In this document: piece after piece, positions 1 to 43,003 of the stretch
How positions within the stretch are numbered: the first letter of the stretch is position 1
Layout of the letters: each line of letters begins with the position of its first letter
From: a virus
Taxonomy: Duplodnaviria; Caudoviricetes
Virus record (IMG/VR): IMGVR_UViG_3300032324_000593
Coordinates: 1-45,662 of that record
Direction: 5' to 3' (one strand)
Length of the DNA stretch: 45,662 nt
Program-made: the position numbers and the translations under genes
Notes under the pieces: model-generated
The model's database searches: none
Told to the model about the DNA's origin: nothing
Seen by the model: only the letters and a program-made list of their open reading frames with translations

Positions 1-1076
1 TAGATAAGTGGATTGGATATGATAAAGACCATTTAATGAATATGAAAAATGGAATGATAGTTTTAAGAGGAACTGATTTAAAAGACATAAAACCAAAAGA
101 TATAAAAGGTTTTGATATGTTAGGTAATAGAGGTTATTCTAAAGGTGGTTCAGTAACAAATGAAAGAAGGCACGTTAATAAAGATGAAGATTATGAAGTA
201 CGTTATTCAAGACCAAGACCAGCAAGAAAAGGTTATTTAGGTAAACGTGATTTTGTTAATGGTGGTGGAGTAGATGATGATACACCTAAAATATATGTTG
301 CTGATTTAGAAGCATACAACAACGGAAGATTATCTGGAGTATGGTTAGATTTAACAAATTATAGCGATGCAGATGAATTAATGGATGCTATAAATGATTT
401 CTTAAAAACTACTGGTGGAGAAGAATATGCAGTTCATGATTATGAAAACCTACCAAGTTCAATGTATTCAGAATATATGGGAGTTAGAGATTTTGAAGAA
501 ATTTATGAAATGCTTGATTTAGCAAAAGAAAACGATTTACCATTAGATGTAGTTATGGAAGTTGTAAGTCAATTTGATAGAAGTGCATTAGATGAATATA
601 CTGGAGTTTATGATAGCGAACAAGATTTTGCAGAACAATTAGTTGATGAAACTGGTATTCAAAGTTTTAACGATTTTCAATATTATTTAGAAGTTTCTGA
701 TACAGACAGAAGGTTATTATCACAAGATATGGCTGATGGTTATGTAGATGATATTAGAGATGAAGATGGTGGAAACAGACTAATTGAAGAAGCTGGTTTA
801 GATGTTGATGAATATGAAGAAGCTGATTCTGAAAGACAAGATGAAATGCTTGATGAAGCAAGAGAAATTGTATATGATGAATATTACAATAATTATTTTG
901 AAGGATTAAGCGACCCATACTACTTTTTAGTAGAGGAACAAGGATTGTATGATGCAGAATCATTTGCTAATGCAAATTTTGTAAGAGTTGATTATGAAAA
1001 ATTAGGCGATGCTTTAGAACAAGATTATACGTTTGTAAGACACGATGGTCAAATTTATGTTTTCAATATTAGATAA
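1..1076 (+). CDS. ardA: 5'-truncated multidomain protein ending in an ArdA-type antirestriction (DNA mimic) domain
   Basis: The frame is open from base 3 (DKWIGYDKDHL before M36), so the gene starts outside the window. ArdA motifs: PKIYVADLEAYNNGRLSGVWLD, EEYAVHDYE, FAEQLVDETG, VDYEKLG. Very acidic. YSKGG and FVNGGG motifs precede the domain. Confidence 0.8.
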   Translation, partial: DKWIGYDKDHLMNMKNGMIVLRGTDLKDIKPKDIKGFDMLGNRGYSKGGSVTNERRHVNKDEDYEVRYSRPRPARKGYLGKRDFVNGGGVDDDTPKIYVADLEAYNNGRLSGVWLDLTNYSDADELMDAINDFLKTTGGEEYAVHDYENLPSSMYSEYMGVRDFEEIYEMLDLAKENDLPLDVVMEVVSQFDRSALDEYTGVYDSEQDFAEQLVDETGIQSFNDFQYYLEVSDTDRRLLSQDMADGYVDDIRDEDGGNRLIEEAGLDVDEYEEADSERQDEMLDEAREIVYDEYYNNYFEGLSDPYYFLVEEQGLYDAESFANANFVRVDYEKLGDALEQDYTFVRHDGQIYVFNIR

Positions 1077-1084
1077 ATAAAATT

Positions 1085-1115
1085 AGCTGGAGAATGTAAA
1101 AGTTTTCCAGCTTTA
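1085..1115 (+). terminator. hairpin, possible weak intrinsic terminator
   Basis: agctggagaa...ttttccagct followed by a short T run, just after the stop at 1076. Confidence 0.4.
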
Positions 1116-1128
1116 ACTAAATATAACT

Positions 1129-4011
1129 ATGACTACATTAGAAAAAAAAATACAAAAAAAAGTAGATGAAATTAATAACTTAATTTCTTTAGCAAGTAAT
1201 TCGGAATCCGATAATGCTTATGATGGTAATTTAATGGTTACAGATACTTCAAGCACATGGGAAGAACCAGCAATTTATAAACCAATTGTTTTTAGAAATG
1301 GTGTTTTATATATTGAATACTTTGAACCATATAGCAACCGAATCAAAAAAGACAAAATTTTAAAAAGAAATTTACAATATGATGGTTATGGTACTTTATT
1401 GGATATTGCAAAAATATACAGACGAGCATTAAAAAAAGAAAATATAAAATATGCTGGTGGTGGAGATTTCCAATCTGGAGTTTATGCTGGAGGTGGAAAA
1501 GTAAAACCTTTTATGTATAAAGAAAAAAATTCAACCATTATGATTAATGGTACAAAGGCAGATGTAAAAAAAATGTATTTAGATTATAAAAACAATTTTT
1601 TAAGCGTTAGTAAATTTGCTGAATATTATAATATTTCTGAAACACAAGCCAATTCTATTATTAATGAAGGCAGAAAATATGCAAAAGAAGATGGTTATTA
1701 TGCTGGTGGTGGAGAATTTATGACAGACCCTACATTTGGTAATTTCCAAAACAATGTTTATGCTGATGGTGGTGGAATTGAAGATGCAATTAAAGGATAT
1801 AAAGAATACACTAAAAAAAATTGGGAAGGTTATGATTATTTTTCTGAAAAATATGCAGTAAATGAACTTGCAGAATTAGAATTAGATTTAAGAAAATTAA
1901 ACGATGGAAGATTAGCACCAAGAAAAGTTGTAGGAAGTGGTTACAAGAACGCAAAAAAAGTAGCACAAGAGTGGTTACAAAGTCAAATTGATAAACAAAA
2001 ATTAGCAATAAAAACAAATGGTTTAAGTAATTATATTAACCATAGAAATTTTAGAAGCGATTTAGTTAATGCTAAAAGAGAAAATATTATTAGCGAAAGA
2101 AAATTTAATGAATTACTGGATGAAAGTAATGAAATAATGGATTCTTTACCAAAATCATTTGCTCGTGGTGGTAAATTACTTTATAAAGATTTATTTGAAG
2201 ATTATGAAAATCAACCAGCAGAATTATCTGAAATTGTAGAAACTTATGTAGAAAAATATGAAACTGATGATTATGATGATTATAATGATACTAAAAAATT
2301 CTTAAAAGAAGTAGAATCAATTGGATATACATTTGATTATGGTTTAGATAACGAACCTTTTGCGTTAAGAAAAAAAGATGTAAAATTAAATCAAGTTATA
2401 GGTTATGAAGATATGTATATAAAAAATGATAATTTTGCTGATGGTGGAGGAGTAGAAAATGATATAAATTTCAGAAAATTTACTATAAATGAATTAATAA
2501 AAAAATTACCACAAGATGTGGAATTTATGTGGATTGTAGAAGAAAAAACACCAAATTTTATTAGAAGAAGCGATAAAGAATTTAAAAAATTATCTAATAC
2601 AGAATTTACAATAACTGATTTTGGAACATTAGAATTAAGCAAAGGTTCAGAAAATTTATATTTAGATATTAAAGTAATGGAAGTTTCAGATAATGCTCCA
2701 GAAGTTTCTTATTTTATTTCTTTGTTTACAAAAGACAATCATAAAGGATTAAAAGAATTTTCTAAAGGATTAATTGAAAAATTTGAAATGGGTGGAGTTA
2801 CTAATAACTTTGTTCCAAGAAGAAATTTAAATACAATTACCATTAAAAAAGGAAATCAAAAATTAACTTACAAAATTTCTGATGTTTTAAATGGTGCATA
2901 TAAATTAGAATTTGGAGCAAGTATTGAAGATATTGCTTTTTACGTTCCTAAAAGAAGTGTAGTAAAAGTACAATTAAAATCTGGAAAAGATTTTAAACCA
3001 GCAAACGGATATTGGATTAAAGATGGTGCTAAACCTATTCATATTACAAAATTTGATGATGGTGGTGTTATGTCAAGATTATTAACTCGTAAAAAAGACC
3101 AACCAAAAGTTGAAACTACTAACGAAGAAATTGATTTAAACGAAGATTCAAGAATTAGAGTAAGACCATCAAGTTTTGTTAGAAAAGATAAAGAAGCAGA
3201 TTGGATGATGAAAAATAATTCATCAAAAGAAGCAAGAACATACGCTGATGGTGGAAAAATAAGATATGAAGATTATGACGATGAAATAGATATGTGGGAT
3301 AAATTAAGTATTTCACAAAGAAAAAAATTATTAGATAGTCAAGAAGATTTAGAACAATATGGAAACCACTCTGAAATAGCACAAGATGATTGGGATGAAT
3401 TAGATGATTATGTTACTGATGTTTTAGAAAATAATTTTAAAAACAAAATGTACGCTGGTGGTGGAAGTGTTGAAAATATTGTTAATAAAGAAGCGAATGA
3501 ATTAATTAAAAAATTAGAAGCTAAAGGTATTTCTGCAAAAAAAAGAGTTTCTAAAAATGGTGTTTTTATTTATGGAGAAAAAAATCAACAAGGAAAATAT
3601 AAATACGAAACTTATTTATCATATTCAGAAATACCAGACAAAAATTTTTTAGAAATTGAAATGTTAGAATTTTTAAGATTAAATAAAAAAATGTATGCTG
3701 GTGGAGGTAAAACCACTTTTTCTGAAAAAGCAAAAGCAATTGCTAAAAATTTTGAAGGTAAGCGTGTCGAACCAAAATACCAAAAAGAGTATGGAAAGGT
3801 TTATGACACAAAAGAAGCTAAAGAAGTAGGAAATAAAATTGCTGGTAGCCAGAAAGCAACATACGATGCTAAAGCAGAAAAGGGAGCAGTAGTTAAAAAA
3901 GGCAAAGGAAACCACAAAATGAAAGCAACTACTGATTTAGCAAGAAAAATACGTAAGGATGGAGAAAAATGGACAGATGCTATCAAACGTGCAAGTTTAC
4001 AATTAAAATAA
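1129..4011 (+). CDS. 960-aa polyvalent/polyprotein-like protein made of small domains separated by [FY]xxGG motifs
   Basis: 11 [FY]xxGG motifs (aa 108,119,191,211,344,436,552,642,705,775,856) separate unrelated segments; basic C-terminus. Confidence 0.7.
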   Translation: MTTLEKKIQKKVDEINNLISLASNSESDNAYDGNLMVTDTSSTWEEPAIYKPIVFRNGVLYIEYFEPYSNRIKKDKILKRNLQYDGYGTLLDIAKIYRRALKKENIKYAGGGDFQSGVYAGGGKVKPFMYKEKNSTIMINGTKADVKKMYLDYKNNFLSVSKFAEYYNISETQANSIINEGRKYAKEDGYYAGGGEFMTDPTFGNFQNNVYADGGGIEDAIKGYKEYTKKNWEGYDYFSEKYAVNELAELELDLRKLNDGRLAPRKVVGSGYKNAKKVAQEWLQSQIDKQKLAIKTNGLSNYINHRNFRSDLVNAKRENIISERKFNELLDESNEIMDSLPKSFARGGKLLYKDLFEDYENQPAELSEIVETYVEKYETDDYDDYNDTKKFLKEVESIGYTFDYGLDNEPFALRKKDVKLNQVIGYEDMYIKNDNFADGGGVENDINFRKFTINELIKKLPQDVEFMWIVEEKTPNFIRRSDKEFKKLSNTEFTITDFGTLELSKGSENLYLDIKVMEVSDNAPEVSYFISLFTKDNHKGLKEFSKGLIEKFEMGGVTNNFVPRRNLNTITIKKGNQKLTYKISDVLNGAYKLEFGASIEDIAFYVPKRSVVKVQLKSGKDFKPANGYWIKDGAKPIHITKFDDGGVMSRLLTRKKDQPKVETTNEEIDLNEDSRIRVRPSSFVRKDKEADWMMKNNSSKEARTYADGGKIRYEDYDDEIDMWDKLSISQRKKLLDSQEDLEQYGNHSEIAQDDWDELDDYVTDVLENNFKNKMYAGGGSVENIVNKEANELIKKLEAKGISAKKRVSKNGVFIYGEKNQQGKYKYETYLSYSEIPDKNFLEIEMLEFLRLNKKMYAGGGKTTFSEKAKAIAKNFEGKRVEPKYQKEYGKVYDTKEAKEVGNKIAGSQKATYDAKAEKGAVVKKGKGNHKMKATTDLARKIRKDGEKWTDAIKRASLQLK

Positions 4012-8569: not shown

Positions 8570-8908
8570 ATGGAAACACAAGTAGATGTGTCAGCACCAG
8601 CACAAGTAGTTGCACCAGCACCAGCACCAGCAGTTGCAGTTGCACCAGCAGTCGCACCAGCAACTCCACAAATGGAAAGTGGTGGATTTATGGAAAGCGT
8701 AACAAAACCAAAAATGAAATTTGTAGATTTATTTATAGCTGGATTATTAATTGCTACACAAATTTATCTTATTGTAGATACAAGAAGAAGAATCAAAAAA
8801 GAAAATGAAATGCCTTCAAAAGAAGAATTTGAAAACTTTGTTGATGATTTAAATGAAGTAAAATACAATGTTGAAAAAGCATTAGGAAAAAAATATGTTA
8901 AAACCTAA
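8570..8908 (+). CDS. membrane protein with Ala/Pro-rich N-terminus
   Basis: APAV repeats, MESGG motif, central TM helix. Confidence 0.7.
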   Translation: METQVDVSAPAQVVAPAPAPAVAVAPAVAPATPQMESGGFMESVTKPKMKFVDLFIAGLLIATQIYLIVDTRRRIKKENEMPSKEEFENFVDDLNEVKYNVEKALGKKYVKT

Positions 8909-12356: not shown

Positions 12357-13178
12357 ATGGAAGAAAGAGAACCAAAATTAGGAGTTGCAGTTGGAAGAAA
12401 AGGTTGTGGTAAAACATATACTACCAGAAAAATGATGCAACAATATGTTGTGGGAAATCCCTTAAAAGGAATTGCTCCCAGAAGGGTATTAATTTTAGAT
12501 GTAAACGATGAATTTGATGATATTAGAGCATTAAGTATAAATGATATTATGCGTTTTTCAGTTCATCCAAAAATAGAAATGAGAAGAATTAGACCTTTTC
12601 ATGATAGCGGAAAGCGTATGACAATTAATGATATACAAGAAACGCTTTTTAAGATTTTAAATGATTTTAGAGGAGGATTATTACTTATAGAAGATGTTAA
12701 TAGATATATTTCAGATTATTTACCGAATGACCTTGTGGGTGCTATATGTACTAACAGACATACCGATACCGACATTATCTTACACTTTCAATCGGTTGGT
12801 AGAGTTTCTCCGAAAATCTGGCAAAACTTAAACTGGATTAGATTCCACAAAAATACGGATAGTGTCGATAAGCACAGAACAAAATTTGACGACAAATATG
12901 AAATGCTTAAATTGGTTGAGAATTACGTTAATAGTGAATATCATACTTACAACAATCAAAGGTATTTTGCTTACGTAGATATTGATGATGAAAAAATTAA
13001 AGGTGTAGATAGAAAGAAATTTGAAAATGTTGTAGATTTGTACATATCGGAAAATTATAAAAAAATGATTTCTCCAATGTTACAGACAAGAGATATTGGA
13101 AAAGGAACAAAAGTTTATACACCAGAATCAGCAGTAAAAGAACAAAAGAAAAGAATTTTAAGCTACTATTTAGATTAA
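12357..13178 (+). CDS. FtsK/HerA-superfamily genome-packaging ATPase (A32/P9-like)
   Basis: Walker A GRKGCGKT at the N-terminus, VLILD strand, Walker B LLLIED, Arg-finger NRH followed by IILHFQ; 273 aa with no nuclease domain. Confidence 0.75.
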   Translation: MEEREPKLGVAVGRKGCGKTYTTRKMMQQYVVGNPLKGIAPRRVLILDVNDEFDDIRALSINDIMRFSVHPKIEMRRIRPFHDSGKRMTINDIQETLFKILNDFRGGLLLIEDVNRYISDYLPNDLVGAICTNRHTDTDIILHFQSVGRVSPKIWQNLNWIRFHKNTDSVDKHRTKFDDKYEMLKLVENYVNSEYHTYNNQRYFAYVDIDDEKIKGVDRKKFENVVDLYISENYKKMISPMLQTRDIGKGTKVYTPESAVKEQKKRILSYYLD

Positions 13179-15464: not shown

Positions 15465-16163
15465 ATGTCAAACGTAAGAAAATATTTAGCTTCGGCTCAA
15501 AGAAATGCAATGGAATCTTTTGCTAATGCAGATGGATTTATTGATGAAGATTTATCATTCACTGGAGATGATTTCTTTAACGCTGGTGGAAACATGGGCG
15601 GTGGAAATGTACAAACTTCACAACCTTATATTGTAAACGTTACTTCAACTTCTGGTTCAGCAGTTAATAACTTTGAAATATTAGGTTCTTACCAATATAT
15701 TAACAATGCTGGTTTTACTTCTGGTGGAGATTTAGTAATTGGTTCAATCACAATTAGTTCTGGTATTTCAGATGTAGATTATCGTGAAATGTTATACCAA
15801 TTTATGAATAATCCTTATTCAGTTGGTTTAACTTACATTCAATCAGCTACTGCTAACCAAGTATTAGAAACTTTAAGTGTAAACACAAGAGATGCTAATG
15901 GTAATTTAGCACAAAAAACTTTAGTACCAACTATTGACCCTTATCAGCAACAAACGACTATCATCGCTATGAAGTATGCTTATAGAATTGATGGTTTCAC
16001 TAAAATTATCATTCGTCAAGTATTGGCAAATGCTACTTTGAAACTATACTTCTACCCAGCAGACAACATAAACCTTGCTCGTGCATTAGGTGGTCAAGCA
16101 GTAAGCAGACAATTCGGAACTCCGCCAGTTACTAATGGTCAAACTATTAGAATTAAAGCGTAA
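15465..16163 (+). CDS. putative major capsid protein (beta-rich, possibly single jelly-roll)
   Basis: Alternating beta-strand pattern, no TM, many TTC/AAC/ATC/CGT codons suggesting high expression, own terminator, heads the membrane-protein cluster, has a paralogue at 37402. Confidence 0.6.
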   Translation: MSNVRKYLASAQRNAMESFANADGFIDEDLSFTGDDFFNAGGNMGGGNVQTSQPYIVNVTSTSGSAVNNFEILGSYQYINNAGFTSGGDLVIGSITISSGISDVDYREMLYQFMNNPYSVGLTYIQSATANQVLETLSVNTRDANGNLAQKTLVPTIDPYQQQTTIIAMKYAYRIDGFTKIIIRQVLANATLKLYFYPADNINLARALGGQAVSRQFGTPPVTNGQTIRIKA

Positions 16164-16204
16164 TTTATCCTTTAGTGAGATAAAATCGAATTAATGTATA
16201 ATTG

Positions 16205-16244
16205 AAAAGGGCAAGAATGATTCATTTCAACTTGCCCTTTTTTT
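16205..16244 (+). terminator. intrinsic terminator after the capsid candidate
   Basis: aaaagggcaag...cttgccctttt followed by a T run. Confidence 0.8.
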
Positions 16245-16258
16245 ATAAAAATTAAATT

Positions 16259-16645
16259 ATGTCAGTATATCAATATGTTGCAGAAAGCAATCCTATGGAA
16301 GCTGAAAGAATTATAGATTCTTTTGGCTATACTATTGCAAAAACACCAGATATGGGATTATCTCAATTGGTTGCAAATGTAGGAGAACCAGCTTTAAAAA
16401 AAGTCATGGAAAACCATCCAGACAAGGAAATTATATTAGAAATGTTTGGCAATGAATCAAATGATAATAAACCATGTGGTTGTAAGTCTTGTACTTCAAA
16501 ATATGAAAATTATTTAAACGCTACTGGAGATACTACAAATAATACACCAACAAAATCACAAGATGTTATAGCAAATCAAACAAATGTAATTTTATTAGTG
16601 AGTGCTTTGTTTATTTCAGTTGCATTAATTTATAAAAATAACTAA
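16259..16645 (+). CDS. virion membrane protein candidate with CGCKSC and C-terminal TM
   Basis: HPDKE motif, Cys cluster, YLNATG motif, TM tail. Confidence 0.7.
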   Translation: MSVYQYVAESNPMEAERIIDSFGYTIAKTPDMGLSQLVANVGEPALKKVMENHPDKEIILEMFGNESNDNKPCGCKSCTSKYENYLNATGDTTNNTPTKSQDVIANQTNVILLVSALFISVALIYKNN

Positions 16646-16646
16646 T

Positions 16647-17303
16647 ATGAGATTAGCAAATCCAAATTTAGGTGCAACATCAGTTATGTATGTTGTAATG
16701 AAAAAAAGAGCAAAACTTCTTGCTTTATTAACAAAAAATGGAGTAAAATATCCAGCAAATGCTACCGATATGCAACTTGCATTAATTGTAACTAATTTAT
16801 TAAAATCATCAAAATCATTTAAAAAAGATTTTGAACAATTACTTGCGGAAGAAGATACAATTGTAAGTATATTTAGTGGAATGGATGGATTTTATTCTAA
16901 TTTTACGTTTAATACACAACAATTTGACCCAAACGCATTTTCTACACCATCTTCAACTTTTACACCACCAAAAGCCAAACCATATAATTTAACTTTTCCA
17001 AAAAGTACAGATACAAAACCAAAAGAAAAAAGTAAATTTAATTTTGGTTCAGCATTAGAATTATTACAAACTGGTTTTGCTGGTTATTTAGCTTTAGATG
17101 AAAATAAAACTAAAAAAGCATTAGCGGATGCAAGTGTACAAATTAAACAAACTGATAAAGAATTAGCAGAATTGGGAGTTTTACCATCTGGTAATATACC
17201 TAAAAAAGAAGGTTTATCTACTGGAGCAATTATAGGAATTAGTTTAGCTGGTATTTTAGTATTAGGTGGAGTAATTTATTTTGCAACCAAAAAAACCGCA
17301 TAA
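16647..17303 (+). CDS. C-anchored membrane protein (paralogue of 17305)
   Basis: LLTKNGV...SKSFKKDF shared with the next gene; TM GAIIGISLAGILVLGGVIYF. Confidence 0.75.
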   Translation: MRLANPNLGATSVMYVVMKKRAKLLALLTKNGVKYPANATDMQLALIVTNLLKSSKSFKKDFEQLLAEEDTIVSIFSGMDGFYSNFTFNTQQFDPNAFSTPSSTFTPPKAKPYNLTFPKSTDTKPKEKSKFNFGSALELLQTGFAGYLALDENKTKKALADASVQIKQTDKELAELGVLPSGNIPKKEGLSTGAIIGISLAGILVLGGVIYFATKKTA

Positions 17304-17304
17304 T

Positions 17305-17862
17305 ATGAACGAGCAAAAAATAAGTACTTTAGTAGGTGGAATGGTTGGTTTATTTCCAACTGAAATCACAGAATTATTAACTAAAAATAATGTAGTAGTT
17401 GATACAATTAACTTAAACATTGATAATTTAGTTACTGCAACTTTTTATGCTTTAGACACATCAGTTTCATTTAGAAAAGATTTTATAAATCTTTACAAAA
17501 ACAATGAAGAATTAATAAATTCAAAAATTGAAAGTGAATATGCTAATAAAGATGGTGCTGGTAGTGGTACTGATTATAGTGGAATAGCATCAAGTTTAAT
17601 TGGTGGTATTGGTGGATTTTTTGGAAGTAAAAACAATTTAAAGTCAGCACAAGCACAAGCAGATGCAATGGTCAGAGGTGGAGAATTATCTTTAGAAGCA
17701 CAAAAATTAGCATTAGAAGGTAAAAAAATTGATGCCCAAACTGCCCTTGCTTTAGCAAGTGCAAAACCACAAGGAAATACAATGTTATATGTAGCATTAG
17801 GAATTGGTGGTGTATTAGTTTTAGGAGTTATAATTTTTGCAGTAACCAGAAAAAGAGCATAA
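17305..17862 (+). CDS. C-anchored membrane protein with a Gly-rich helix
   Basis: LLTKNNV...SVSFRKDF; YANKDG; TM tail; probable start ATG 17305. Confidence 0.75.
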   Translation: MNEQKISTLVGGMVGLFPTEITELLTKNNVVVDTINLNIDNLVTATFYALDTSVSFRKDFINLYKNNEELINSKIESEYANKDGAGSGTDYSGIASSLIGGIGGFFGSKNNLKSAQAQADAMVRGGELSLEAQKLALEGKKIDAQTALALASAKPQGNTMLYVALGIGGVLVLGVIIFAVTRKRA

Positions 17863-19836: not shown

Positions 19837-20622
19837 ATGAATTTTAGAATACAAACAAGATATAATGAAATGTGCCTTAAAGTTGTTGTAAAAGTAAATA
19901 CACCAACAAAAGTTACAATTAAAATTGTTGATGAAGAAAAATCTAAAATCATTTTTACAGACAGATATAAAACAATTCAAAATACAGAAACGTTTTATAT
20001 TAGGATGCCTTTAACTTCAAATTCTGTTATATTATCAGTTTATGATGAAAATAAAGGTAATGTTCCTAAAGAACAAGAAAAAAATATACAAGTTGTTAGT
20101 ATTGATAAAACACCATTAGAAAAACGAATGGATGTTGTAGATATTAAAAACAAAAATGTTGCTTATTTTGTAGATTTTGCACAAAGATTTTGTTATAACG
20201 CATCATATTTAGCAACTAATAAATCATATAAATCAGATAATGGTCAGTTTATAATTGAATATTTACCAACTATTATTAGTACAAGCGGAAAAGAACTTAC
20301 TACTCCAGCCAGAATATCAAAAGTTTCTGGAAGGATTCAAGTTTCTAAAAAACAATTTGACAAATATACCATACCAATGCGTTTTGCTATTCTTTGTCAT
20401 GAATTTAGTCATTTTTATGTAAATGATGATATGGATAACGAAAGTGAAGCAGATATAAACGGATTATTGATTTATTTAGGTCTGGGTTATCCACGAATTG
20501 AAGGGTATCAAGCATTTTTAGAAGTTTTTAAAGATGCACCAAACGATAGTAACAAGAAAAGATTTGATAGGATTGATAAATTCATCAGAAACTTTGAAAA
20601 AAATAAAATGGTAATAAGATAA
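19837..20622 (+). CDS. zincin-type metallopeptidase (HExxH) with N-terminal beta domain
   Basis: FAILCHEFSHFY...ESEAD. Confidence 0.7.
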   Translation: MNFRIQTRYNEMCLKVVVKVNTPTKVTIKIVDEEKSKIIFTDRYKTIQNTETFYIRMPLTSNSVILSVYDENKGNVPKEQEKNIQVVSIDKTPLEKRMDVVDIKNKNVAYFVDFAQRFCYNASYLATNKSYKSDNGQFIIEYLPTIISTSGKELTTPARISKVSGRIQVSKKQFDKYTIPMRFAILCHEFSHFYVNDDMDNESEADINGLLIYLGLGYPRIEGYQAFLEVFKDAPNDSNKKRFDRIDKFIRNFEKNKMVIR

Positions 20623-30555: not shown

Positions 30556-31374
30556 ATGAAAACTATTTTTTACAATTCCTCTCTACCCAGAAGTGGTAGC
30601 ACTTTAATTCAAAACATTATTGCACAAAATCCAGATTTTTATACTACACCAACAAGTGGTTTAGTTGATTTAATTTTGGCATCAAAAAACAATTACAATC
30701 ATTCCCAATCATTTATTGCACAAGACCAAAAGCAAATGGAAAATGCGTTTTTAACATATTGCAAAGCTGGTATGCAAGGATATTTTGAAGGACTAACCGA
30801 CAAACCATTTGTAGTTGATAAAAGTCGTGAATGGAGTATAAATTATGGTTTGTTAAATATGTTTTTTCCAAATCCAAAAATTATTTGTATGGTAAGGGAT
30901 ATAAGATGTATTTATTCTTCAATGGAAAAAAACTTTAGAAAAAATCCACATAAAGAAAATCATATACAAAACGCACCACAATTAGTAGGTACTACTCTAA
31001 ACAAAAGACTTGATTTATGGGCAAGTGGAGTGCCAGTAGGAGTTGCAATAGATAGGTTACAAGATGTTATTCAACAAGGTTTGGATAAAAATTTATTATT
31101 TATTCGTTATGAAGATTTGATGGATAATCCAGAAAATGAAATGAAGCGTATTTACGAGTATTTTAATGTACCTTACTATGATAACCACGATTTTGAAAAC
31201 ATAACGCAACACACACAAGAAAACGATACCATTCATGGTATATATGGCGACCACACTTTAAGAACAAAATTTGAACGTAAACCAGATGATTATTTAGATG
31301 TTTTAGGATATGAACTATCAATGAACATTAGAAACCACTATAAATGGTTTTACGATTATTTCGGATATGTATAA
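30556..31374 (+). CDS. PAPS-dependent sulfotransferase
   Basis: 5'-PSB loop SSLPRSGSTL, KIICMVRD...SS, IRYEDL. Confidence 0.85.
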   Translation: MKTIFYNSSLPRSGSTLIQNIIAQNPDFYTTPTSGLVDLILASKNNYNHSQSFIAQDQKQMENAFLTYCKAGMQGYFEGLTDKPFVVDKSREWSINYGLLNMFFPNPKIICMVRDIRCIYSSMEKNFRKNPHKENHIQNAPQLVGTTLNKRLDLWASGVPVGVAIDRLQDVIQQGLDKNLLFIRYEDLMDNPENEMKRIYEYFNVPYYDNHDFENITQHTQENDTIHGIYGDHTLRTKFERKPDDYLDVLGYELSMNIRNHYKWFYDYFGYV

Positions 31375-31385
31375 ACAATAGGGTA

Positions 31386-33503
31386 CTAAATATGTACCCT
31401 ATTTTTTTTGTTTATTCCTATCTTAATAACCATATCGTGTACTGATATTCCTTTTTGACACTCAAATTGCTTATCGTAACCATCCCAAATAGGACACCAA
31501 TTCCAGTTTCCTTTGTCAAATTTAAAGTTTTTGTTATTCCAGCAACCATGACAAACAGATGTATTTGTCAATCTGGTACAATCACTTTGAAATTCATGGT
31601 CGGCAGTAGTGAAATTAGCAATCATGTAAACGTGTTTGTTTAATGCCCAAGCTAACCAGCTTAAACCACTACTTAAACCAATAAAATATTCTGAAAAGTG
31701 AATAATTTGCATAGTAGTTTCTAAAGACAAATCTTTTGGTTCTAAAACTTTTTCTAAATTATATTTTGTATTTATTGATACATTAACAACTTCAAAACCA
31801 TTATCAATTAGATAATAAACTAACTTTTGCCAATTCCATAAATCCCATTCTTTACAACCAGCAGTTGAATCTGGAGCAATACAAACATAAGGTTTTTGAG
31901 TATTGCTCAATTCCATTTTTGGTGTAAAATTCAATTTAGGTTTTAATTCACTAAAACTTAACCCTAAAATATTTGTAGCAGTTTGTTGTAATGGTATTGT
32001 ATTAGGTAAAACTGGCTCTTTATTACTATCATAAAACCATCCTAAATCAAATTTTGCTTGTAAATTATTAATTACTTCGGCTGGTTCAATAAAAAATATA
32101 TTTGGATATTGGTCTTTAAATAAGAAGTTTTTAAAAGTTGAAACAAACAAAACGCAATCATGTTTTTTCTGAAATTCATCACAATAAGGCAACCATGCCA
32201 AAGTGTCGCCTAATGAACTACTTTCAAAAGAAATCATAACTCGCTTACCTTTTAAATCAAACATTTGGTCAAAAATAACCTCACTTGTTTTTTGTTTGTC
32301 AGCTTTAATTTCAGTAACTTTTATATGGTATTCTGTATAGTATTTTCTGTTTAATTTTACCCACGAATTACATTTAATGGTATCTTCATAAAACAAACCA
32401 TTTTCATCAAAAAATTCAACTTTAAAAGTGCTTGTAGATTTTCCATTTATTTCAATAAAAGCACCATCTACAAAATGATGATTAATACTTACTTTTCCTT
32501 CTTTTGGTTGTTTCATAATTTTTGATTTTAAAATTGATTTATACAAATCTTCATGGTCGTTTTTGAAATGAAATGTATCATTATTACTATTTATTCTTGC
32601 TTTATATTTTAATGGACTATCTAAAGGTTTTATAATTCCATCATACATACCACAATATTGCGGTAAATTATTAGCATAAATGGTTAATTCATGGCTTATT
32701 GCTTCACGTAACACAATAGGATTACACTCTTTTTTACTTGGAAATAAAAATATGTCAGATAAAATCATAAAATCCTCAATATCTTCTCTTTCTCCCCAAA
32801 CTTTTACATTTTTTGGAATTTTTTTCATTAATGGTTTCCAATAATCAGCAAAGTTTTCAGCTTGATTACCAACTATATGAAAATCATAATCTGGATATTG
32901 TTCAGCAATTTCTAAAACTTTTGCTTGATTTTTATTATCACACCATAATCCAACGGATAAAACATTTGTTTTTTTTGTGTCAAATTTTAGTTTATCAAGT
33001 GCATTTTTGTGTTTAATTTCATTAAATGGTATTATTTCTAAAGGGTACATGATTACTTTCTTTTCCGTTTGAATATCTTTAAAAGTTTCAAGATGATATG
33101 GAGTACAAAAAGCAAAAGCATCTGGAATAAATATTTTATTTTTAGGATTAAAAGAAACATTATGACACGTTTCAACAATACGATAGTTACGATTATTTGC
33201 ATAAAGTTTTTCCATTAAATTTAAATCAAAACCCTCTGCTTCGTGGTCAATATGTACAATTTGTACACTTTTTTCTTTAATAATATCTATTAGCTTAAAT
33301 TTATTATCATCCAATGTAAATAAATTTTCTTTGCCTATTAAATTAATGATTTGATTTCTTTGTACAACATATTGGTCAGACAAACATTCATACTCAACAA
33401 GAAATATTTTGTTATAAGTATCTATAAGATTTTCAATTCTTTTTAAAAGAAATTGTGGCATACCACCAGTAGATAAGTGTGGTGCTAAAAATAATATGTT
33501 CAT
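31386..33503 (-). CDS. fusion of a GT4-like glycosyltransferase and an autotransporter O-heptosyltransferase (Aah/TibC-like) domain
   Basis: N-terminal HLSTGGMPQ and FLFPSKKECNPIVLREA; C-terminal SLGDTLAWLPY, GLSSGLSWLAW and four Cys CHGC...WCP...FEC. Confidence 0.75.
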   Translation of the reverse strand: MNILFLAPHLSTGGMPQFLLKRIENLIDTYNKIFLVEYECLSDQYVVQRNQIINLIGKENLFTLDDNKFKLIDIIKEKSVQIVHIDHEAEGFDLNLMEKLYANNRNYRIVETCHNVSFNPKNKIFIPDAFAFCTPYHLETFKDIQTEKKVIMYPLEIIPFNEIKHKNALDKLKFDTKKTNVLSVGLWCDNKNQAKVLEIAEQYPDYDFHIVGNQAENFADYWKPLMKKIPKNVKVWGEREDIEDFMILSDIFLFPSKKECNPIVLREAISHELTIYANNLPQYCGMYDGIIKPLDSPLKYKARINSNNDTFHFKNDHEDLYKSILKSKIMKQPKEGKVSINHHFVDGAFIEINGKSTSTFKVEFFDENGLFYEDTIKCNSWVKLNRKYYTEYHIKVTEIKADKQKTSEVIFDQMFDLKGKRVMISFESSSLGDTLAWLPYCDEFQKKHDCVLFVSTFKNFLFKDQYPNIFFIEPAEVINNLQAKFDLGWFYDSNKEPVLPNTIPLQQTATNILGLSFSELKPKLNFTPKMELSNTQKPYVCIAPDSTAGCKEWDLWNWQKLVYYLIDNGFEVVNVSINTKYNLEKVLEPKDLSLETTMQIIHFSEYFIGLSSGLSWLAWALNKHVYMIANFTTADHEFQSDCTRLTNTSVCHGCWNNKNFKFDKGNWNWCPIWDGYDKQFECQKGISVHDMVIKIGINKKNRVHI

Positions 33504-33516
33504 AAAAATATTTTTT

Positions 33517-33535
33517 GGTTACTGGTACAAATATA
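33517..33535 (-). promoter_or_regulatory. conserved promoter element TATATTTGTACCAGTAACC (copy 1 of 3)
   Basis: Same element at 43303 and 45589; contains TAnnTTTG; upstream of the 33503 start. Confidence 0.75.
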
Positions 33536-33547
33536 ATATTTTTTTTG

Positions 33548-33555
33548 TATATTTG
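33548..33555 (+). promoter_or_regulatory. divergent -7 promoter box (TATATTTG)
   Basis: About 29 nt upstream of ATG 33584. Confidence 0.6.
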
Positions 33556-33583
33556 AAAAAAAAAGAAACTTAAATTTATAACT

Positions 33584-34051
33584 ATGATTTACAACTTTAT
33601 TGGGCAACCACACGCTGGTAAAACCACACTTGCTAAACATCTAAAAAATGTTTTAGAAACTAATTATAATCCAATGCTTTTCAAACATTGTATTTTAGTT
33701 GATGGAGATAATTTGAGAGATATTCTTAAAAACAAAGACTTTTCGGAACAAGGAAGAAGAAACAATATCAATCAAGCATATAATATTGCTAAATTTTTAG
33801 ATAAAGATTCATGTTTTGATGTTGTAATTGCAGTTGTTTCGCCTTTTTTAGATTTAAGAGAAAAATTAAAAAAAGAAGCAGATGTAATTGAAATTTATGT
33901 ACATACAACAGATATTAGAGGTCGAGAAGCATATCATGTACCTTATTTTGAAGCACCTATGCGTAATTTTATTGATGTTGATACAACAAATATTGATGAA
34001 TTAACAACTATGAATGAACTACTAAACAATATCGAAAATTATGGAAAATAA
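33584..34051 (+). CDS. cysC: adenylyl-sulfate (APS) kinase
   Basis: P-loop GQPHAGKTT, LVDGDNLR, DFSEQGRRNNI, VVSPF, FEAP. Confidence 0.85.
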   Translation: MIYNFIGQPHAGKTTLAKHLKNVLETNYNPMLFKHCILVDGDNLRDILKNKDFSEQGRRNNINQAYNIAKFLDKDSCFDVVIAVVSPFLDLREKLKKEADVIEIYVHTTDIRGREAYHVPYFEAPMRNFIDVDTTNIDELTTMNELLNNIENYGK

Positions 34052-34349
34052 AGAATTACAAAATACTGCAAGTGTTATTCAAAAATTTATAATAGAAGGA
34101 AGAAAATTATTTTTTAAAGAAAATCAACCTATGTTTGTTGAAATTCGTTTTAATAATAACGATGTAGATGGAACAAGGAAATGGAGAGTAATTTTTAGTG
34201 GAAAAGAATTTCATACTGCTGAAATTTTTATTGAAATTCCATGCAAAACTGAAAGTAAATTTTATGAAGAATTAGGAGGTTATAAACATCATATTGTATG
34301 TGATGCTAATATAATTTATTTTGAAAATAACATTTGTAGAATAAAATAA
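34041..34349 (+). CDS. hypothetical protein
   Basis: IRFN...WRV...KHHIVC; overlapping start. Confidence 0.6.
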   Translation: MENKELQNTASVIQKFIIEGRKLFFKENQPMFVEIRFNNNDVDGTRKWRVIFSGKEFHTAEIFIEIPCKTESKFYEELGGYKHHIVCDANIIYFENNICRIK

Positions 34350-34350
34350 T

Positions 34351-34755
34351 ATGGAAAATTGGAATAAAAAAATTCACGTTAAATCTTCATTACCTAAAAA
34401 AGATGGTCAATATGCAATGTTTATTGGAAGATGGCAACCATTACATGATGGTCATAAAGCTATGTTTCAAAAAGCAATGCAACAAGGAAAAAACGTACTT
34501 ATTTGTGTCAGAGATGGAGAAGTAAACGAAAAAAACCCTTTTACTTCTGAACAAGTTAAAGAAAATATAGAAACTAATTACGCTTCATTTTTCAAACAAG
34601 GCGAAGTAAAAGTTATGGTAATTCCAGATATTTGTAGTGTAGAATTTGGTCGTGGAGTAGGTTATGATATTATTGAACATATACCACCAACTGAAATTGC
34701 AGAAATTTCGGCTACAAAAATTCGAGAAGAAATGAAAAAAAACGGAGAATTGTAA
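34351..34755 (+). CDS. HIGH-superfamily (cytidylyltransferase-like) nucleotidyltransferase
   Basis: FIGRWQPLHDGH, NPF, ISATKIR. Confidence 0.85.
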   Translation: MENWNKKIHVKSSLPKKDGQYAMFIGRWQPLHDGHKAMFQKAMQQGKNVLICVRDGEVNEKNPFTSEQVKENIETNYASFFKQGEVKVMVIPDICSVEFGRGVGYDIIEHIPPTEIAEISATKIREEMKKNGEL

Positions 34756-34970
34756 TGGAAGTAACAAAAAAACGACATATTGCAAAAACAATAAGTTATA
34801 GATTAGTTTCAACCGCAATTGGTTTTGGTGTAGTTTGGGCAGTTAGTGGCTCAATAACTATTGGAAGTGCATTTGGATTTGCTGAATTAGTTTACAAACC
34901 AATACAATATTATATTCACGAAAGAATATGGTACAGATACATTAAATACGGACTTAAAAATAAAAAATAA
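34755..34970 (+). CDS. DUF2061-like small membrane protein
   Basis: RHIAKTISYR...YYIHERIW. Confidence 0.8.
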   Translation: MEVTKKRHIAKTISYRLVSTAIGFGVVWAVSGSITIGSAFGFAELVYKPIQYYIHERIWYRYIKYGLKNKK

Positions 34971-35839
34971 TGAATGTAATTTTTCAAATAGATGGTGGAT
35001 TAGGAAAGTCAATTATGGCAACCGCAGTTTTAAAAGCAATAAAAAAGAAATACTCAAAAGCAAATATAATTGTTGTTAGTTCGTACCCAGATGTTTTTAT
35101 AAGTAATCCAAACGTAAATAGAGTTATAACACATGAACAATTAACTGGTATTTATGAAAAGTGGATAATGCTAAAAGAAGCAAAAGTTTTTGTTTCAGAC
35201 CCTTATCAAAGTTCAGATTTTATAACTGAAAGCAAACATTTAATTGAAATTTGGTGTGATATGTATGGTTTAAAATATGATGGAGAAAAACCAGAATTAT
35301 TTATTTCTAAATCTGAAAAACAATATTTTGAACCATTTTACAGATTAGACAAACCAATTTTAGCAATACAACCTAATGGTGGAGCATTAAATCAACCATT
35401 AAAATATAGTTGGACAAGAGATATTCCACAACCAGCTATGCAAGATATAGTTAATCATTTTGCTAACGATTATGCAATATTGCACATAAAACGTGATGAC
35501 CAAATAATATATGAAAATACAATGGCTTGTTTGGATAACTTTAGAAGTATAGCTATTATGTTATCTATGTCTGAAAAAAGATTATTAATTGATTCTTCGG
35601 CTATGCACATTGCAACTGCTTTAGGTTTACCATCAGTTGTTTGTTGGGTAGGCACAAATCCAAAAGTGTTTGGGTATGATATGCACACAAATATTGAAGC
35701 AAACGCACCAGATTCCGAGCCAAATCTTAATCATCCGAATTATAGTAAATATTTGTTATTTCAAGATATTAGCACAATACCTTATACAGATTTAAATAAT
35801 GTTTTTGATAAAAATTTAATAATAAATGCCTTAAAATAA
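34970..35839 (+). CDS. GT9-like (heptosyltransferase-fold) glycosyltransferase
   Basis: GGLGKSIMAT, NPNV, IDSSAMHIATALGLPSVVCW. Confidence 0.75.
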   Translation: MNVIFQIDGGLGKSIMATAVLKAIKKKYSKANIIVVSSYPDVFISNPNVNRVITHEQLTGIYEKWIMLKEAKVFVSDPYQSSDFITESKHLIEIWCDMYGLKYDGEKPELFISKSEKQYFEPFYRLDKPILAIQPNGGALNQPLKYSWTRDIPQPAMQDIVNHFANDYAILHIKRDDQIIYENTMACLDNFRSIAIMLSMSEKRLLIDSSAMHIATALGLPSVVCWVGTNPKVFGYDMHTNIEANAPDSEPNLNHPNYSKYLLFQDISTIPYTDLNNVFDKNLIINALK

Positions 35840-37401: not shown

Positions 37402-37863
37402 ATGCCAGTAATTATACCAACTATAACATTTTACGCAAATAATGTGGTTTCGGTTGTATCTTTAGATTCAACTCCATATTTTGTTATTCAAAATAGTATG
37501 GGTAGTTTTGTTTATGGTCTTACAGAATTATACTTAAAAGCAAATTCAAATTCTCAAATATTGCAATCTTATAAATTTAATAGATATGATGTAAATGGAA
37601 CGTTAGAATCTTTTTCACAAATTCCTATAATTGACCCTTATCAATTTCAATCATCTTTATTTGTTGAAATGCAAAAAGAAAATGTATATTTAGATGGAAG
37701 AACAAATTTAGCTTTTACAATTTTACCAAACGAAACTTTATTTTTAATTCTTTATAATGACCAAATTGCTAATAGAGATTTTGTTCCAGCAACAGATTTC
37801 TTTAATGATGATTTTTTTAACAAACAATATAACGTATTAAATGACTACCAAGAACTACTATAA
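37402..37863 (+). CDS. paralogue of the capsid candidate (minor capsid protein)
   Basis: QILQSYKFNRYDVNG...PIIDPYQFQ...LDGRT...ILPNETLFLILY aligns with QVLETLSVNTRDANG...PTIDPYQQQ...IDGFT...VLANATLKLYFY of 15465. Confidence 0.7.
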   Translation: MPVIIPTITFYANNVVSVVSLDSTPYFVIQNSMGSFVYGLTELYLKANSNSQILQSYKFNRYDVNGTLESFSQIPIIDPYQFQSSLFVEMQKENVYLDGRTNLAFTILPNETLFLILYNDQIANRDFVPATDFFNDDFFNKQYNVLNDYQELL

Positions 37864-38314
37864 ACATTCATCACTATTAAAGATAAAGTTAGAAAATAAA
37901 AAAAATACAATATTAAAACTAAAGACTGGAGATTTAGTTAAAACAAAAGCAGAAGATTATCCATTAATATATCATTATGGAATAGTAGATAAGACCAAAG
38001 ATGGTTTTTTTATTTTGCATAATCATCCAGATAAAATAAATTCAAAAGGTGGCTCTATTGTAAAAGAATCTTTTGAAAAATGGATTAAAGGAAAAGAAAT
38101 TGTTTCGGTAGAATCAACAAACCTAAAAACAGATGATATTGATGAATTATATCAAAAACTAAAAGTTTATAAATATGATTTTATTAATTTTAATTGTGAG
38201 CATTTTGTTAATTTTGCTAAAAATAATGATTATGTAAGCCCACAAGTTTTGAGATGGACTTCATTAATTGCTATTGGAATTATTACGTTTTATTTATTAA
38301 GAAAAAAAATATGA
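37841..38314 (+). CDS. LRAT-like permuted NlpC/P60 enzyme with C-terminal TM
   Basis: GDLV...HYGIV (His), YDFINFNCEHFV (catalytic Cys, NCEHF signature). Confidence 0.8.
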   Translation: MTTKNYYKHSSLLKIKLENKKNTILKLKTGDLVKTKAEDYPLIYHYGIVDKTKDGFFILHNHPDKINSKGGSIVKESFEKWIKGKEIVSVESTNLKTDDIDELYQKLKVYKYDFINFNCEHFVNFAKNNDYVSPQVLRWTSLIAIGIITFYLLRKKI

Positions 38315-41401: not shown

Positions 41402-42118
41402 TTACACTAATTGCTTGTAGAACATTTGTTTTGAATTAAAGTAATCATGTACTAATGCTCTATTTTCTGGAGTATCACGATAATAAATGCAATCAGTTTT
41501 ATAAGAATCAAAATCTTTACCTAATTTTAATGAAAGTTCATACATCATATAATAACAACTATATCGTATATCTTTATAAACATCCAGCAAAACTTCATCT
41601 TTTTTTCTTTTTATTTCTTGTTTTACTAAAACACCATTTTCGTAAATATCATAAATACGTTCAGTACCTAATGTAGATAACGTTGCTAATCGTAATGCTT
41701 TTGCTTTTTCAATTAAACCTCTTTCGTATGTTTTTTCAGAAATATAACCTTTCACATAAGCAATTCTCCAAAACGCATGATTTAAGTCTGTACCAGTAAT
41801 TTTACCTTTATCATGTTCGTAATTGTAATTGTATTTTCCAACATCTACTAAAGGTGGTAAAATAACTTCTGGATTATCTTTTAAATAACGCTTTACATCA
41901 TCCCTAACTATTTTAAACATATAAATCATATCTGGTGGAAAATTCTTCCTACCACAAGAAAATATAGTTAGTTTTTTATCAAAAATAAGTTCATTTACTT
42001 CTGTTCCCTTACGTACAACAAAAGAACCTTTCCCACGAATCAATCTATCTAAAAAGTTTTCAATTTTTCCAGTTGAGTAAGCTCTTTTGTTAATTTCTAA
42101 ATTTTTTACTTCTTCCAT
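41402..42118 (-). CDS. miniature family-B DNA polymerase-like palm protein
   Basis: TDLNHAFW (motif A-like), KALRLATLSTLG (motif B-like), YKTDCIYY (motif C-like), in canonical order. Confidence 0.45.
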   Translation of the reverse strand: MEEVKNLEINKRAYSTGKIENFLDRLIRGKGSFVVRKGTEVNELIFDKKLTIFSCGRKNFPPDMIYMFKIVRDDVKRYLKDNPEVILPPLVDVGKYNYNYEHDKGKITGTDLNHAFWRIAYVKGYISEKTYERGLIEKAKALRLATLSTLGTERIYDIYENGVLVKQEIKRKKDEVLLDVYKDIRYSCYYMMYELSLKLGKDFDSYKTDCIYYRDTPENRALVHDYFNSKQMFYKQLV

Positions 42119-42133
42119 AGTCAGTATAAAATA

Positions 42134-43003
42134 TTAAATTTCTCCTCCTTTTTCAAGTTTTTGTTTTAATTCTCTAACTGCACTTTCAAAAAACTCTTTT
42201 GATATAACTTTTGAATTATACAATTTTTCTAAATTTTTCAAAGTTTCTAAAGACAACTTTTTATCTTCTTCTTCTTTTCCTTCAACTTGTTTTGGTCTTA
42301 ATTTCTTTTCTGCTTTTTCTTTTAAACTTCTTTCTTTTCTTATTGCTTCCAGTTCACGAAACCTTACATCCCTTTTTCTTTTAGCTTCCGAAGATAAATC
42401 ACTTTCTCCAACAATTTTTAATGCTTCATCTTCATCTCCTTTAATGTCATACGAAGAATTTAAAGTAGTTATCAATAAATAGTATGAACAAGGTTTTCCA
42501 TCATCTTTTTTATTTGGAGCAATCATTGTTTTCATAATCAACATTTCGTCTGAACCAAAATTCTTTAAACGTAAATCTTCAACAATTTCTTTAGGATTAA
42601 GTAAATCAGATTTCTTTATAATTCCAGTATCAATAATATTATCAAAAGCAACTCGAATTTTTAAGTTTGGGTCTAATGTTTGTACAAATTCTGCAAACAA
42701 CCACCAATTCTTATCAATTAAATCAGATGTAGGAATATCAAATGGACTTGCACAAATTTCTCTAATAGGTGCTGGTATTTTACCAAAATCAATTGGTTTT
42801 TTTTCTAAAATAGAATTAATTACAGAATCAACTTCTGTTACTTTAATTTTTGAAATTGGTCTGCCTTTGTACAATTGAAATAAGTTTGCCGAAACCCACT
42901 TTTGAGAATCATTCCAAGTAAAACCTAATTTTCTTTTTTTAGAAATTTTATAAATTCTTCTGGTAAGTAAGACAAAAATTTGTCTTGAATAGTTCTTTTT
43001 CAT
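42134..43003 (-). CDS. hypothetical protein with C-terminal SHOCT-like helix pair
   Basis: LKNLEKLYNSKVISKEFFESAVREL; ends LEKGGEI. Confidence 0.6.
   Translation of the reverse strand: MKKNYSRQIFVLLTRRIYKISKKRKLGFTWNDSQKWVSANLFQLYKGRPISKIKVTEVDSVINSILEKKPIDFGKIPAPIREICASPFDIPTSDLIDKNWWLFAEFVQTLDPNLKIRVAFDNIIDTGIIKKSDLLNPKEIVEDLRLKNFGSDEMLIMKTMIAPNKKDDGKPCSYYLLITTLNSSYDIKGDEDEALKIVGESDLSSEAKRKRDVRFRELEAIRKERSLKEKAEKKLRPKQVEGKEEEDKKLSLETLKNLEKLYNSKVISKEFFESAVRELKQKLEKGGEI

Follow-up and report, generated by a model that had tools for sequence, protein, structure and literature searches.

What is the role of a short glycine-rich peptide that recurs at nearly every joint of long, virus-encoded polyproteins? 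The question is raised by two open reading frames (ORFs) at the beginning of virus record IMGVR_UViG_3300032324_000593, the whole of which (45,662 bases, hereafter the window) was analysed; the record opens inside a gene. An earlier note on this DNA had described the ORFs as unrelated segments punctuated by the motif [FY]-x-x-G-G, and had proposed that the strung proteins are packaged and then released by a viral protease cutting after the two glycines or, alternatively, that the motif is a packaging or ejection tag. As set out below, the motif bounds modules, and strains gain, lose and reorder these modules by crossing over inside motif DNA. That it is in addition a processing signal, cut in cargo polyproteins, is a proposal to which we give about even chances.

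The joint peptide and the modules it bounds

The second ORF (1129..4011, plus strand) encodes a polyprotein of 960 amino acids (aa) that is split into 12 segments by 11 motifs: YAGGG at aa 108, 119, 191, 775 and 856 (nucleotides (nt) 1450, 1483, 1699, 3451 and 3694), YADGG at aa 211 and 705 (nt 1759 and 3241), FARGG at aa 344 (nt 2158), FADGG at aa 436 (nt 2434), FEMGG at aa 552 (nt 2782) and FDDGG at aa 642 (nt 3052). The list given in the earlier note is exact. The polyprotein contains 70 Gly, its 11 runs of at least two Gly all lie in a motif, and F or Y stands three residues ahead of GG in 11/11. Counted with overlaps, the motif occurs 12 times; 100,000 shuffles gave 0.52 on average and never more than 6. 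Segments between motifs measure 6-128 aa. Two sites had been regarded as degenerate copies. LEFGA (aa 593, nt 2905) is a true variant, for homologues read LEDGG (46), LESGA (30) or LExGG (12) at this place; AEKGA (aa 916, nt 3874) finds indirect support in a motif that splits the final 100 aa of many homologues 34-44 aa from the end.

The upstream ORF (3..1076, plus strand) carries YSKGG (135..149, residue 45) and FVNGG(G) (252..266, residue 84) and ends in an ArdA anti-restriction module (PF07275, E 2e-23, aa 97-232). The second motif lies 8 residues ahead of the ArdA match, which begins at residue 97 with model position 1; the claim that a motif directly precedes this domain therefore stands. 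The two motifs had been rightly recognized, but the ORF is incomplete: the end of the record has removed the 5' portion of a polyprotein whose orthologues are 921 aa (G007) and 1127 aa (G006) long and contain 9-10 motifs, so that only its 3' portion is present.

Fourteen relatives were examined: ten genomes (G001-G010) measure 62-102 kb, and the other four (G011-G014; 46-60% identity of the capsid candidate) are more distant. All 14 encode motif polyproteins, so that a motif lacking conservation in homologues, which the earlier note had named as an argument against itself, is not what was found. Counts of gene distribution given below refer to two genome sets, 11 close genomes and 15 genomes. 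In 38 polyproteins of 11 genomes (43,265 aa), 373 motifs were found among 537 Gly runs. The [FY]-x-x-G-G core is confirmed in this set, but its extent had been underestimated: the full motif is a heptapeptide of the form aromatic/Leu/Met-(A)-x-G-G-x-hydrophobic, in which position 1 is Y, F, L or M, position 2 is mostly A, E or K, GG is the most invariant part and the second residue after GG is V, I, L, T, M or F (344/373 sites). One relative's chain of 2,781 aa contains as many as 34 motifs. The Gly codons of the motif are free to vary, whereas its residues are conserved, with F, Y, L and M replacing one another; selection therefore acts on the peptide, and a DNA-level recombination site of fixed sequence was rejected because the codons vary. 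Separately, in several short polyproteins of G002, G003, G005 and G008 the terminal motif is followed by a common tail of 16 residues (..PDYL.MFLG.), which might be another sorting tag.

A protein search yielded 263 matches among 7,998 scored candidates, and the 120 listed homologues were used further. F, Y or M occupies position -3 in 1,298 of their 1,823 Gly runs, versus 97/791 after shuffling. Split at the motif, they yield 1,565 segments with a median of 55 aa (the median size of modules is 55-67 aa) that fall into 107 recurring clusters and 188 singletons and form 372 distinct adjacencies, most modules of the 960-aa query being found beside several different partners on the left and on the right. 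When motifs are masked, 486 of the 711 internal ends of ungapped alignments are located no more than 10 aa from a query motif (23% expected), and 452 of these 486 homology ends lie at a motif in both proteins. In alignments with at least 70% identity, 279/400 ends coincide with strict motifs, and 353/400 do so when LEFGA and AEKGA are counted. Whole domains between motifs in relatives include ArdA, LPD11, ART-PolyVal, zeta toxin, DUF2958 and DUF5661. Among 32 known-domain matches, which were hand-picked and from which some repeat rows of one family were omitted, six span a motif where 18.5 were expected; two related PHROG families account for four of these, a weak SPOR match and DUF5824 for the other two. 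The motif bounds modules, in agreement with the domain-boundary role first assigned to it; homology boundaries and hidden Markov model matches indicate that it stands between domains. Because ArdA, LPD11, ART-PolyVal and zeta-toxin domains occur between motifs, both ORFs of the window are, to judge by domain content, polyvalent proteins assembled from small modules that can be swapped. Modules of the anti-defence type, as originally supposed, are among them, together with domains typical of polyvalent proteins: ArdA in the window and LPD11, ART-PolyVal and zeta toxin in relatives.

The 960-aa polyprotein itself has no Pfam match, and homologues in annotated phages were found for only two of its modules. 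The first (aa 124-189; 1498..1695, plus strand) is like the standalone 77-aa gp027 of Erwinia phage phiEa104 (44% identity over aa 139-192; PHROG 26669, 4907), a gene of matching size and thus a standalone homologue of the kind for which a search of the split segments had been suggested. The second, an acidic module (aa 349-435; 2173..2433, plus strand), resembles part of gp134 of Cellulophaga phage phi17:2 (49% identity; PHROG 37263), in which LDEGG precedes the matching region in the same register as the window motif. The last polyprotein closes with a conserved basic C-terminal module (3709..4008, plus strand; 28 K/R versus 13 D/E), and two related terminal clusters end 111 of the 120 listed homologues. 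Contigs from the RNA runs X18 and X20 lie on both polyprotein ORFs, which does not show transcription. The motif allows such unannotated polyproteins to be parsed into single modules, with 107 recurring families from one query that are almost all unnamed and are located next to ArdA, LPD11 and ART-PolyVal; they constitute a list of candidate anti-defence proteins.

Module exchange and motif copies outside the joints

At 675 sites the upstream module is the best predictor of the residues through the aromatic, whereas from the third motif position onward the best predictor is the downstream module. As the prediction switches inside the motif, the crossovers fall within it. Natural exchange was followed in contigs from 8 sequencing runs (of 20 listed), mostly freshwater or aquatic, compared at 85% likeness; runs X7 and X8 may share one strain, and joints at this likeness can stem from other organisms. 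Twenty-one of 23 distinct natural joints are listed, and 24 of their 42 ends are situated within 10 nt of a motif (background 11%), nine of the 21 leading from motif to motif at both ends. An in-frame skip of 1,023 nt from YADGG to FEMGG is present in 4/8 runs and a skip of 60 nt in two; a further joint (253>1701) starts at FVNGG(G). The segment shuffling among related genomes that the earlier note expected is thus seen both in module adjacencies and in natural contig joints at motifs.

These exchanges bear on the possibility that the motif is a mere flexible linker combined with DNA microhomology for in-frame recombination of modules and has no protein reader at all. Crossovers inside the motif and the motif-to-motif joints agree with this explanation, as does RecT, which is encoded in 11/15 genomes. 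Synonymous codons, however, are not fixed, the motif persists in places without any swapping, namely C-termini and proteins of a single module, and a plain linker needs neither an aromatic residue at -3 nor a hydrophobic one at +2. We therefore regard a linker without a reader as improbable.

Two of the copies outside the joints had already been pointed out and prove to be conserved in orthologues. A protein of 289 aa (42134..43003, minus strand) ends in LEKGGEI (motif nt 42143-42157), and 10/11 orthologues have a C-terminal motif with 2-3 residues behind it. MESGG (nt 8672-8686) occurs in a core small protein (8570..8908, plus strand; 11/11 close genomes) with a hydrophobic, likely membrane, stretch; a Pro/Ala-rich N-terminus is followed by the motif in 8/11 orthologues, the other three having a Gly run. 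Moreover, the first polyprotein ends in a motif in 8/10 relatives. Such copies argue that something reads the peptide.

Possible cutting or docking, and the candidate readers

By analogy with ArdA/Dar-type polyvalent proteins and with gp45 of phage crAss001, the polyproteins probably reach the host as cargo of the virion. The joint heptapeptide likely serves as a processing signal, and a cut there would free the modules; we put the chance that it is cut at slightly better than even. With moderately greater assurance, if cutting occurs, the bond would be placed between the aromatic residue and AxGG, as in the tail protein pb2 of phage T5, rather than after GG. T5 pb2 is cut after R1127, as determined by mass spectrometry (PMC10038345), and its sequence record reads R|AEGGMM at this point, that is, a look-alike AEGG peptide is cut before AxGG and not after GG. 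In phage lambda, gpH is shortened by about 14 kDa within a Gly-rich region, and both the site and the enzyme are stated to be unknown (PMC12617516); FATGG is found at position 733 of 853, about 120 aa from the end of gpH. Among the retained C-terminal tape measure protein fragments of DT57C, lambda and 80alpha no conserved motif is reported (PMC10713586).

African swine fever virus (ASFV) polyproteins are cut at GG|x. The adenovirus protease requires (M/I/L)xGG|x or (M/I/L)xGx|G, a consensus with M, I or L two residues before GG (PMC4246237). As in these viruses, GG-containing sites are repeated over several proteins, and the window virus is probably of the jelly-roll type; unlike them, its spacing differs, no such cysteine protease was found and the cargo consists of conflict modules instead of core shell proteins. 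Cutting after Gly-Gly in the adenovirus or ASFV fashion, by a viral cysteine protease that is either of the adenain type or the PPPDE-like product of 37841, could account for the invariance of GG, and YAGGG happens to fit hydrophobic-x-G-G|G. Yet of 474 isolated GG pairs only 43 have the adenovirus spacing and 328 carry F, Y, M or L three residues before, and T5 pb2 is cut ahead of the glycines. Neither adenain/Ulp1/I7 (clan CE) nor JAB families were matched in Pfam scans of 57 window, 52/96 G007 and 91/100 G011 proteins, which a divergent member could escape; most unscanned G007 proteins have window orthologues that were scanned. Motif patterns for adenain and JAB gave two incidental Cys-pattern matches and zero JAB matches in 11 genomes. 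The cut after GG originally envisaged is hence not upheld, and we deem a cysteine protease of this kind quite unlikely.

The same holds for 37841 (37841..38314, plus strand), a PPPDE/LRAT-like permuted papain protein that the earlier note had put forward as a possible motif protease. Members of the Peptidase_C97 family cut after GG in ubiquitin and SUMO conjugates, and 37841 matches this family weakly (E 4e-5, below the curated cut-off). It is, however, present in 8/15 genomes and missing from seven which all keep the motif, including G001 with 39 motifs, where its two neighbour genes adjoin and no match was obtained at E<=1. Some of the absences may be due to truncation (G005, G008); G011, also without it, has terminal repeats. 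As a general motif protease 37841 was rejected on this distribution and is viewed as accessory; that it is nevertheless the enzyme, should the peptide be cut, is improbable.

The cutting enzyme would most likely be the core zincin 19837 (19837..20622, plus strand), which combines a beta-sandwich with an M48-like HEXXH...E domain and is the only protease-fold gene found in 15/15 genomes. H188, E189, H192 and E202 are invariant in 99 sequences. The predicted model (predicted local distance difference test (pLDDT) 91) resembles BepA (Z 8.5, root mean square deviation 3.6, 116 aligned residues), Q74D82 (Z 6.7) and ZMPSTE24 (Z 6.1). As no Pfam match was obtained, the protein is called an M48-like zincin on the strength of this model, like the family rather than a filed member of it. 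Co-occurrence of motif and 19837 covered genomes down to about 45% capsid identity. Of the enzymes considered, conditional on cutting, it is the one we tentatively rank first, still short of an even chance, followed by a host protease, which is possible but less probable. An in-chain metallopeptidase was rejected, since the 38 polyproteins contain just one incidental HExxH.

A further candidate, a rather unlikely one as the enzyme, is a domain of about 75 aa in the relatives (L038:11813-12166 in G007), defined by an invariant Gly-Gly, His and two Glu. This GG-His-Glu domain is present exactly once in 14/14 relatives and itself ends in the motif; its position in the window would be upstream of the cut record end. 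It matches the tape measure C-terminus of Elizabethkingia phage TCUEAP1 (E 4e-4; 3.6e-7 with a profile, against three proteins). No significant sequence match was found in PDB, and the best E value in PHROGs was 0.016. In ESM Atlas it scored 0.90 against crAss_CARG1 with 141 shared features, which the profile did not confirm on gp45. Genes for a MoxR-type AAA ATPase and a vWA-like protein (DUF7192), found in 12/15 genomes, lie between polyprotein genes (L038:16495-19436 in G007), and the pair is possibly a cargo loader or unfoldase.

Several observations weigh against a cut joint peptide and against the zincin as its reader. Conserved motifs that lie 2-4 residues from the C-terminus (42134, first polyprotein) are more easily understood as an uncut tag than as a release site, as a cut there frees nothing, nor does one around the inter-motif segments of just 3-6 aa. 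T5 pb2 differs from the window proteins in having Arg at the first position and a single cut in a tail protein of an unrelated phage with no profile-level homology detected; for lambda gpH, too, no profile-level homology was detected. 19837 is without a match in 50,697 phage records, although T5, lambda and crAss001 carry look-alike peptides; as these tailed phages lack it, it cannot be the enzyme for their peptides. It is still a fair candidate, and the best one among the viral enzymes, with the distribution of the look-alikes speaking against it. The GG-His-Glu profile in turn did not score T5 pb2, lambda gpH or crAss001 gp45. gp45 has been read as a single chain that passes through the portal, with cleavage unmentioned in the accessible text (PMC10172136), and N4 virion RNA polymerase, ArdC and TraC1 travel uncut (PMC5512222). 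Finally, 19837 may have another substrate, the [FY]xNAxG peptides of capsid and membrane proteins. This second motif, [FY]-x-N-A-x-G, was noticed in the window (15465-17862) and in relatives: the capsid candidate carries it on its N-terminal low-confidence arm (FANADG), and several small proteins of the membrane type have it as well (YLNATG, YANKDG); a loose pattern occurs in 63/117 distant capsid homologues.

The packaging or ejection tag named in the earlier note consequently has to be taken as a serious rival. An uncut docking tag would be bound by a virion component, be it the GG-His-Glu domain, the MoxR AAA/vWA pair or the packaging vertex, for cargo loading or as an ejection ratchet. This explanation accommodates the C-terminal copies, which keep the hydrophobic +2 even with 2-4 residues behind the motif, the copy on the membrane-type protein 8570, and a domain that is present once per relative, ends in the motif and is like the C-terminus of a tape measure protein, as well as the location of the MoxR/vWA genes. 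crAss001 gp45 points in the same direction: it contains five motif-like peptides (positions 17, 260, 329, 559 and 825), two of which directly follow the resolved segments 214-245 and 425-552. It is proven virion cargo with such peptides as here, but belongs to a tailed phage, and the motif is not described in the accessible part of the paper (PMC10172136). On the other hand, one tag per protein is enough for loading, yet nearly every joint has one, up to 34 per chain, and the T5 look-alike is cut. Docking without cutting is in our estimation clearly the less probable of the two, though well worth consideration.

Both cutting and threading would be united by one seven-residue cargo code shared across virus realms, from T5 tape measure trimming and crAss cargo to the polyproteins of a large tailless jelly-roll phage, which it would punctuate dozens of times per genome. 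In this speculative scheme, to which we assign a low probability, the chain is cut or threaded by a single conserved reader, either a host protease or the GG-His-Glu domain acting in trans, and the motif DNA as crossover point provides an in-frame cassette system. If the scheme were true, any small anti-defence gene that gains the peptide would be packaged, delivered and released.

Returning to the cut processing signal, zincin processing of polyvalent proteins and their delivery with DNA were already proposed by Iyer et al. in 2017, and P1 DdrB is processed (PMC5512222). As in that class, the polyproteins described here string together many conflict domains that are unrelated to one another (ArdA, LPD11, ART-PolyVal), in mosaic order. 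They are unlike it in the fixed peptide at nearly every joint, the very small modules, the probably tailless carrier and a zincin encoded by a separate core gene outside the chain; the in-chain zincin MPTase, present in 36% of polyvalent proteins, is common but not required (PMC5512222). No junction motif is named in the accessible text of that study, in the main text of which the word "glycine" occurs 0 times. While polyvalent proteins are known, no description of the fixed joint peptide was found in a literature search that had most subscription journals and the File Transfer Protocol supplements of the 2017 study outside its reach. The locus adds the motif in a probably tailless virus, swaps at the motif on the nucleotide level, evidence against 37841 and against adenovirus spacing, and a once-per-genome domain linking polyproteins to tape measure C-termini. 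For the processing proposed in 2017 it offers exact candidate bonds and a ranked list of enzymes.

The virus and further genes of the window

The virus, an uncultured one from freshwater, is probably tailless, the evidence being suggestive but not decisive: 15465 is a beta-sandwich with weak jelly-roll likeness, a P-loop ATPase belongs to the core, two relatives (G007 and G011) have inverted terminal repeats, and Pfam scans of window, G007 and G011 proteins matched no tailed-phage structural families. The likely single jelly-roll capsid protein (15465..16163, plus strand) was modelled as one confident beta-sandwich (pLDDT 88). Its structure matches include viral jelly rolls, not decisively, with Z scores within the common-fold range (best 6.6, PR772 chain 6.2, major capsid protein of FLiP 5.4). 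Foldseek gave no match against PDB at E<=0.001 for the models of 15465 or 19837, and matches in BFVD had low TM-scores; the best ESM Atlas score of the capsid candidate (0.80) is uninformative. Like 19837, 15465 had zero matches among the 50,697 phage records. Single distant capsid proteins as queries returned no farther family members or mostly the same clade again, and no description of the virus group was found within the reach of the literature search. The core P-loop ATPase (12357..13178, plus strand; 11/11 close genomes), the likely packaging motor, shows weak AAA_22 and HerA matches and also a weak PHROG terminase match (E 5e-6). If the virus is indeed tailless, protein cargo delivery of the tailed-phage type would occur in a jelly-roll phage group absent from those phage records. 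Copies of the capsid candidate were also observed: a short paralogue is encoded at 37402-37863 of the window (profile E 9e-16), two full-length capsid-like genes stand in tandem in G010, and additional as well as doubled copies occur in G002.

The host is a bacterium, as indicated by cell-wall hydrolases and ArdA in the window, and probably one of the Bacteroidota. Scarcity of Shine-Dalgarno sequences together with A at -3 is linked with this phylum; in the window a Shine-Dalgarno-like word precedes 2/57 genes and A is found at -3 in 41/57. 19837 was encountered on seven contigs of metagenome-assembled genomes (MAGs), three assigned to Bacteroidota and four to others. These are probably binned viruses and give a weak hint on the host, as the Sediminibacterium contig looks viral at both ends. 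This 132-kb contig of the same virus family (L264 / G016:C9) was binned in a Sediminibacterium MAG; provirus status is unsupported.

The motif-ended protein 42134 adjoins a conserved 238-aa protein (41402-42118, minus strand; 12/15 genomes) without Pfam, PHROG or PDB sequence match. Its invariant stretches TDL.HA.W and TDCIYYRD resemble, by eye, the palm motifs of family-B polymerases. The idea that 41402 and 42134 are a tiny polymerase and a terminal protein, suggested by their adjacency and by the inverted terminal repeats of the relatives, is worth testing. Elsewhere in the window (30556-35839), genes for a sulfotransferase, APS kinase, a nucleotidyltransferase and glycosyltransferases adjoin a 1525-aa GTS/N-repeat fibre gene, a gene content which suggests sulfated glycosylation of a virion fibre.

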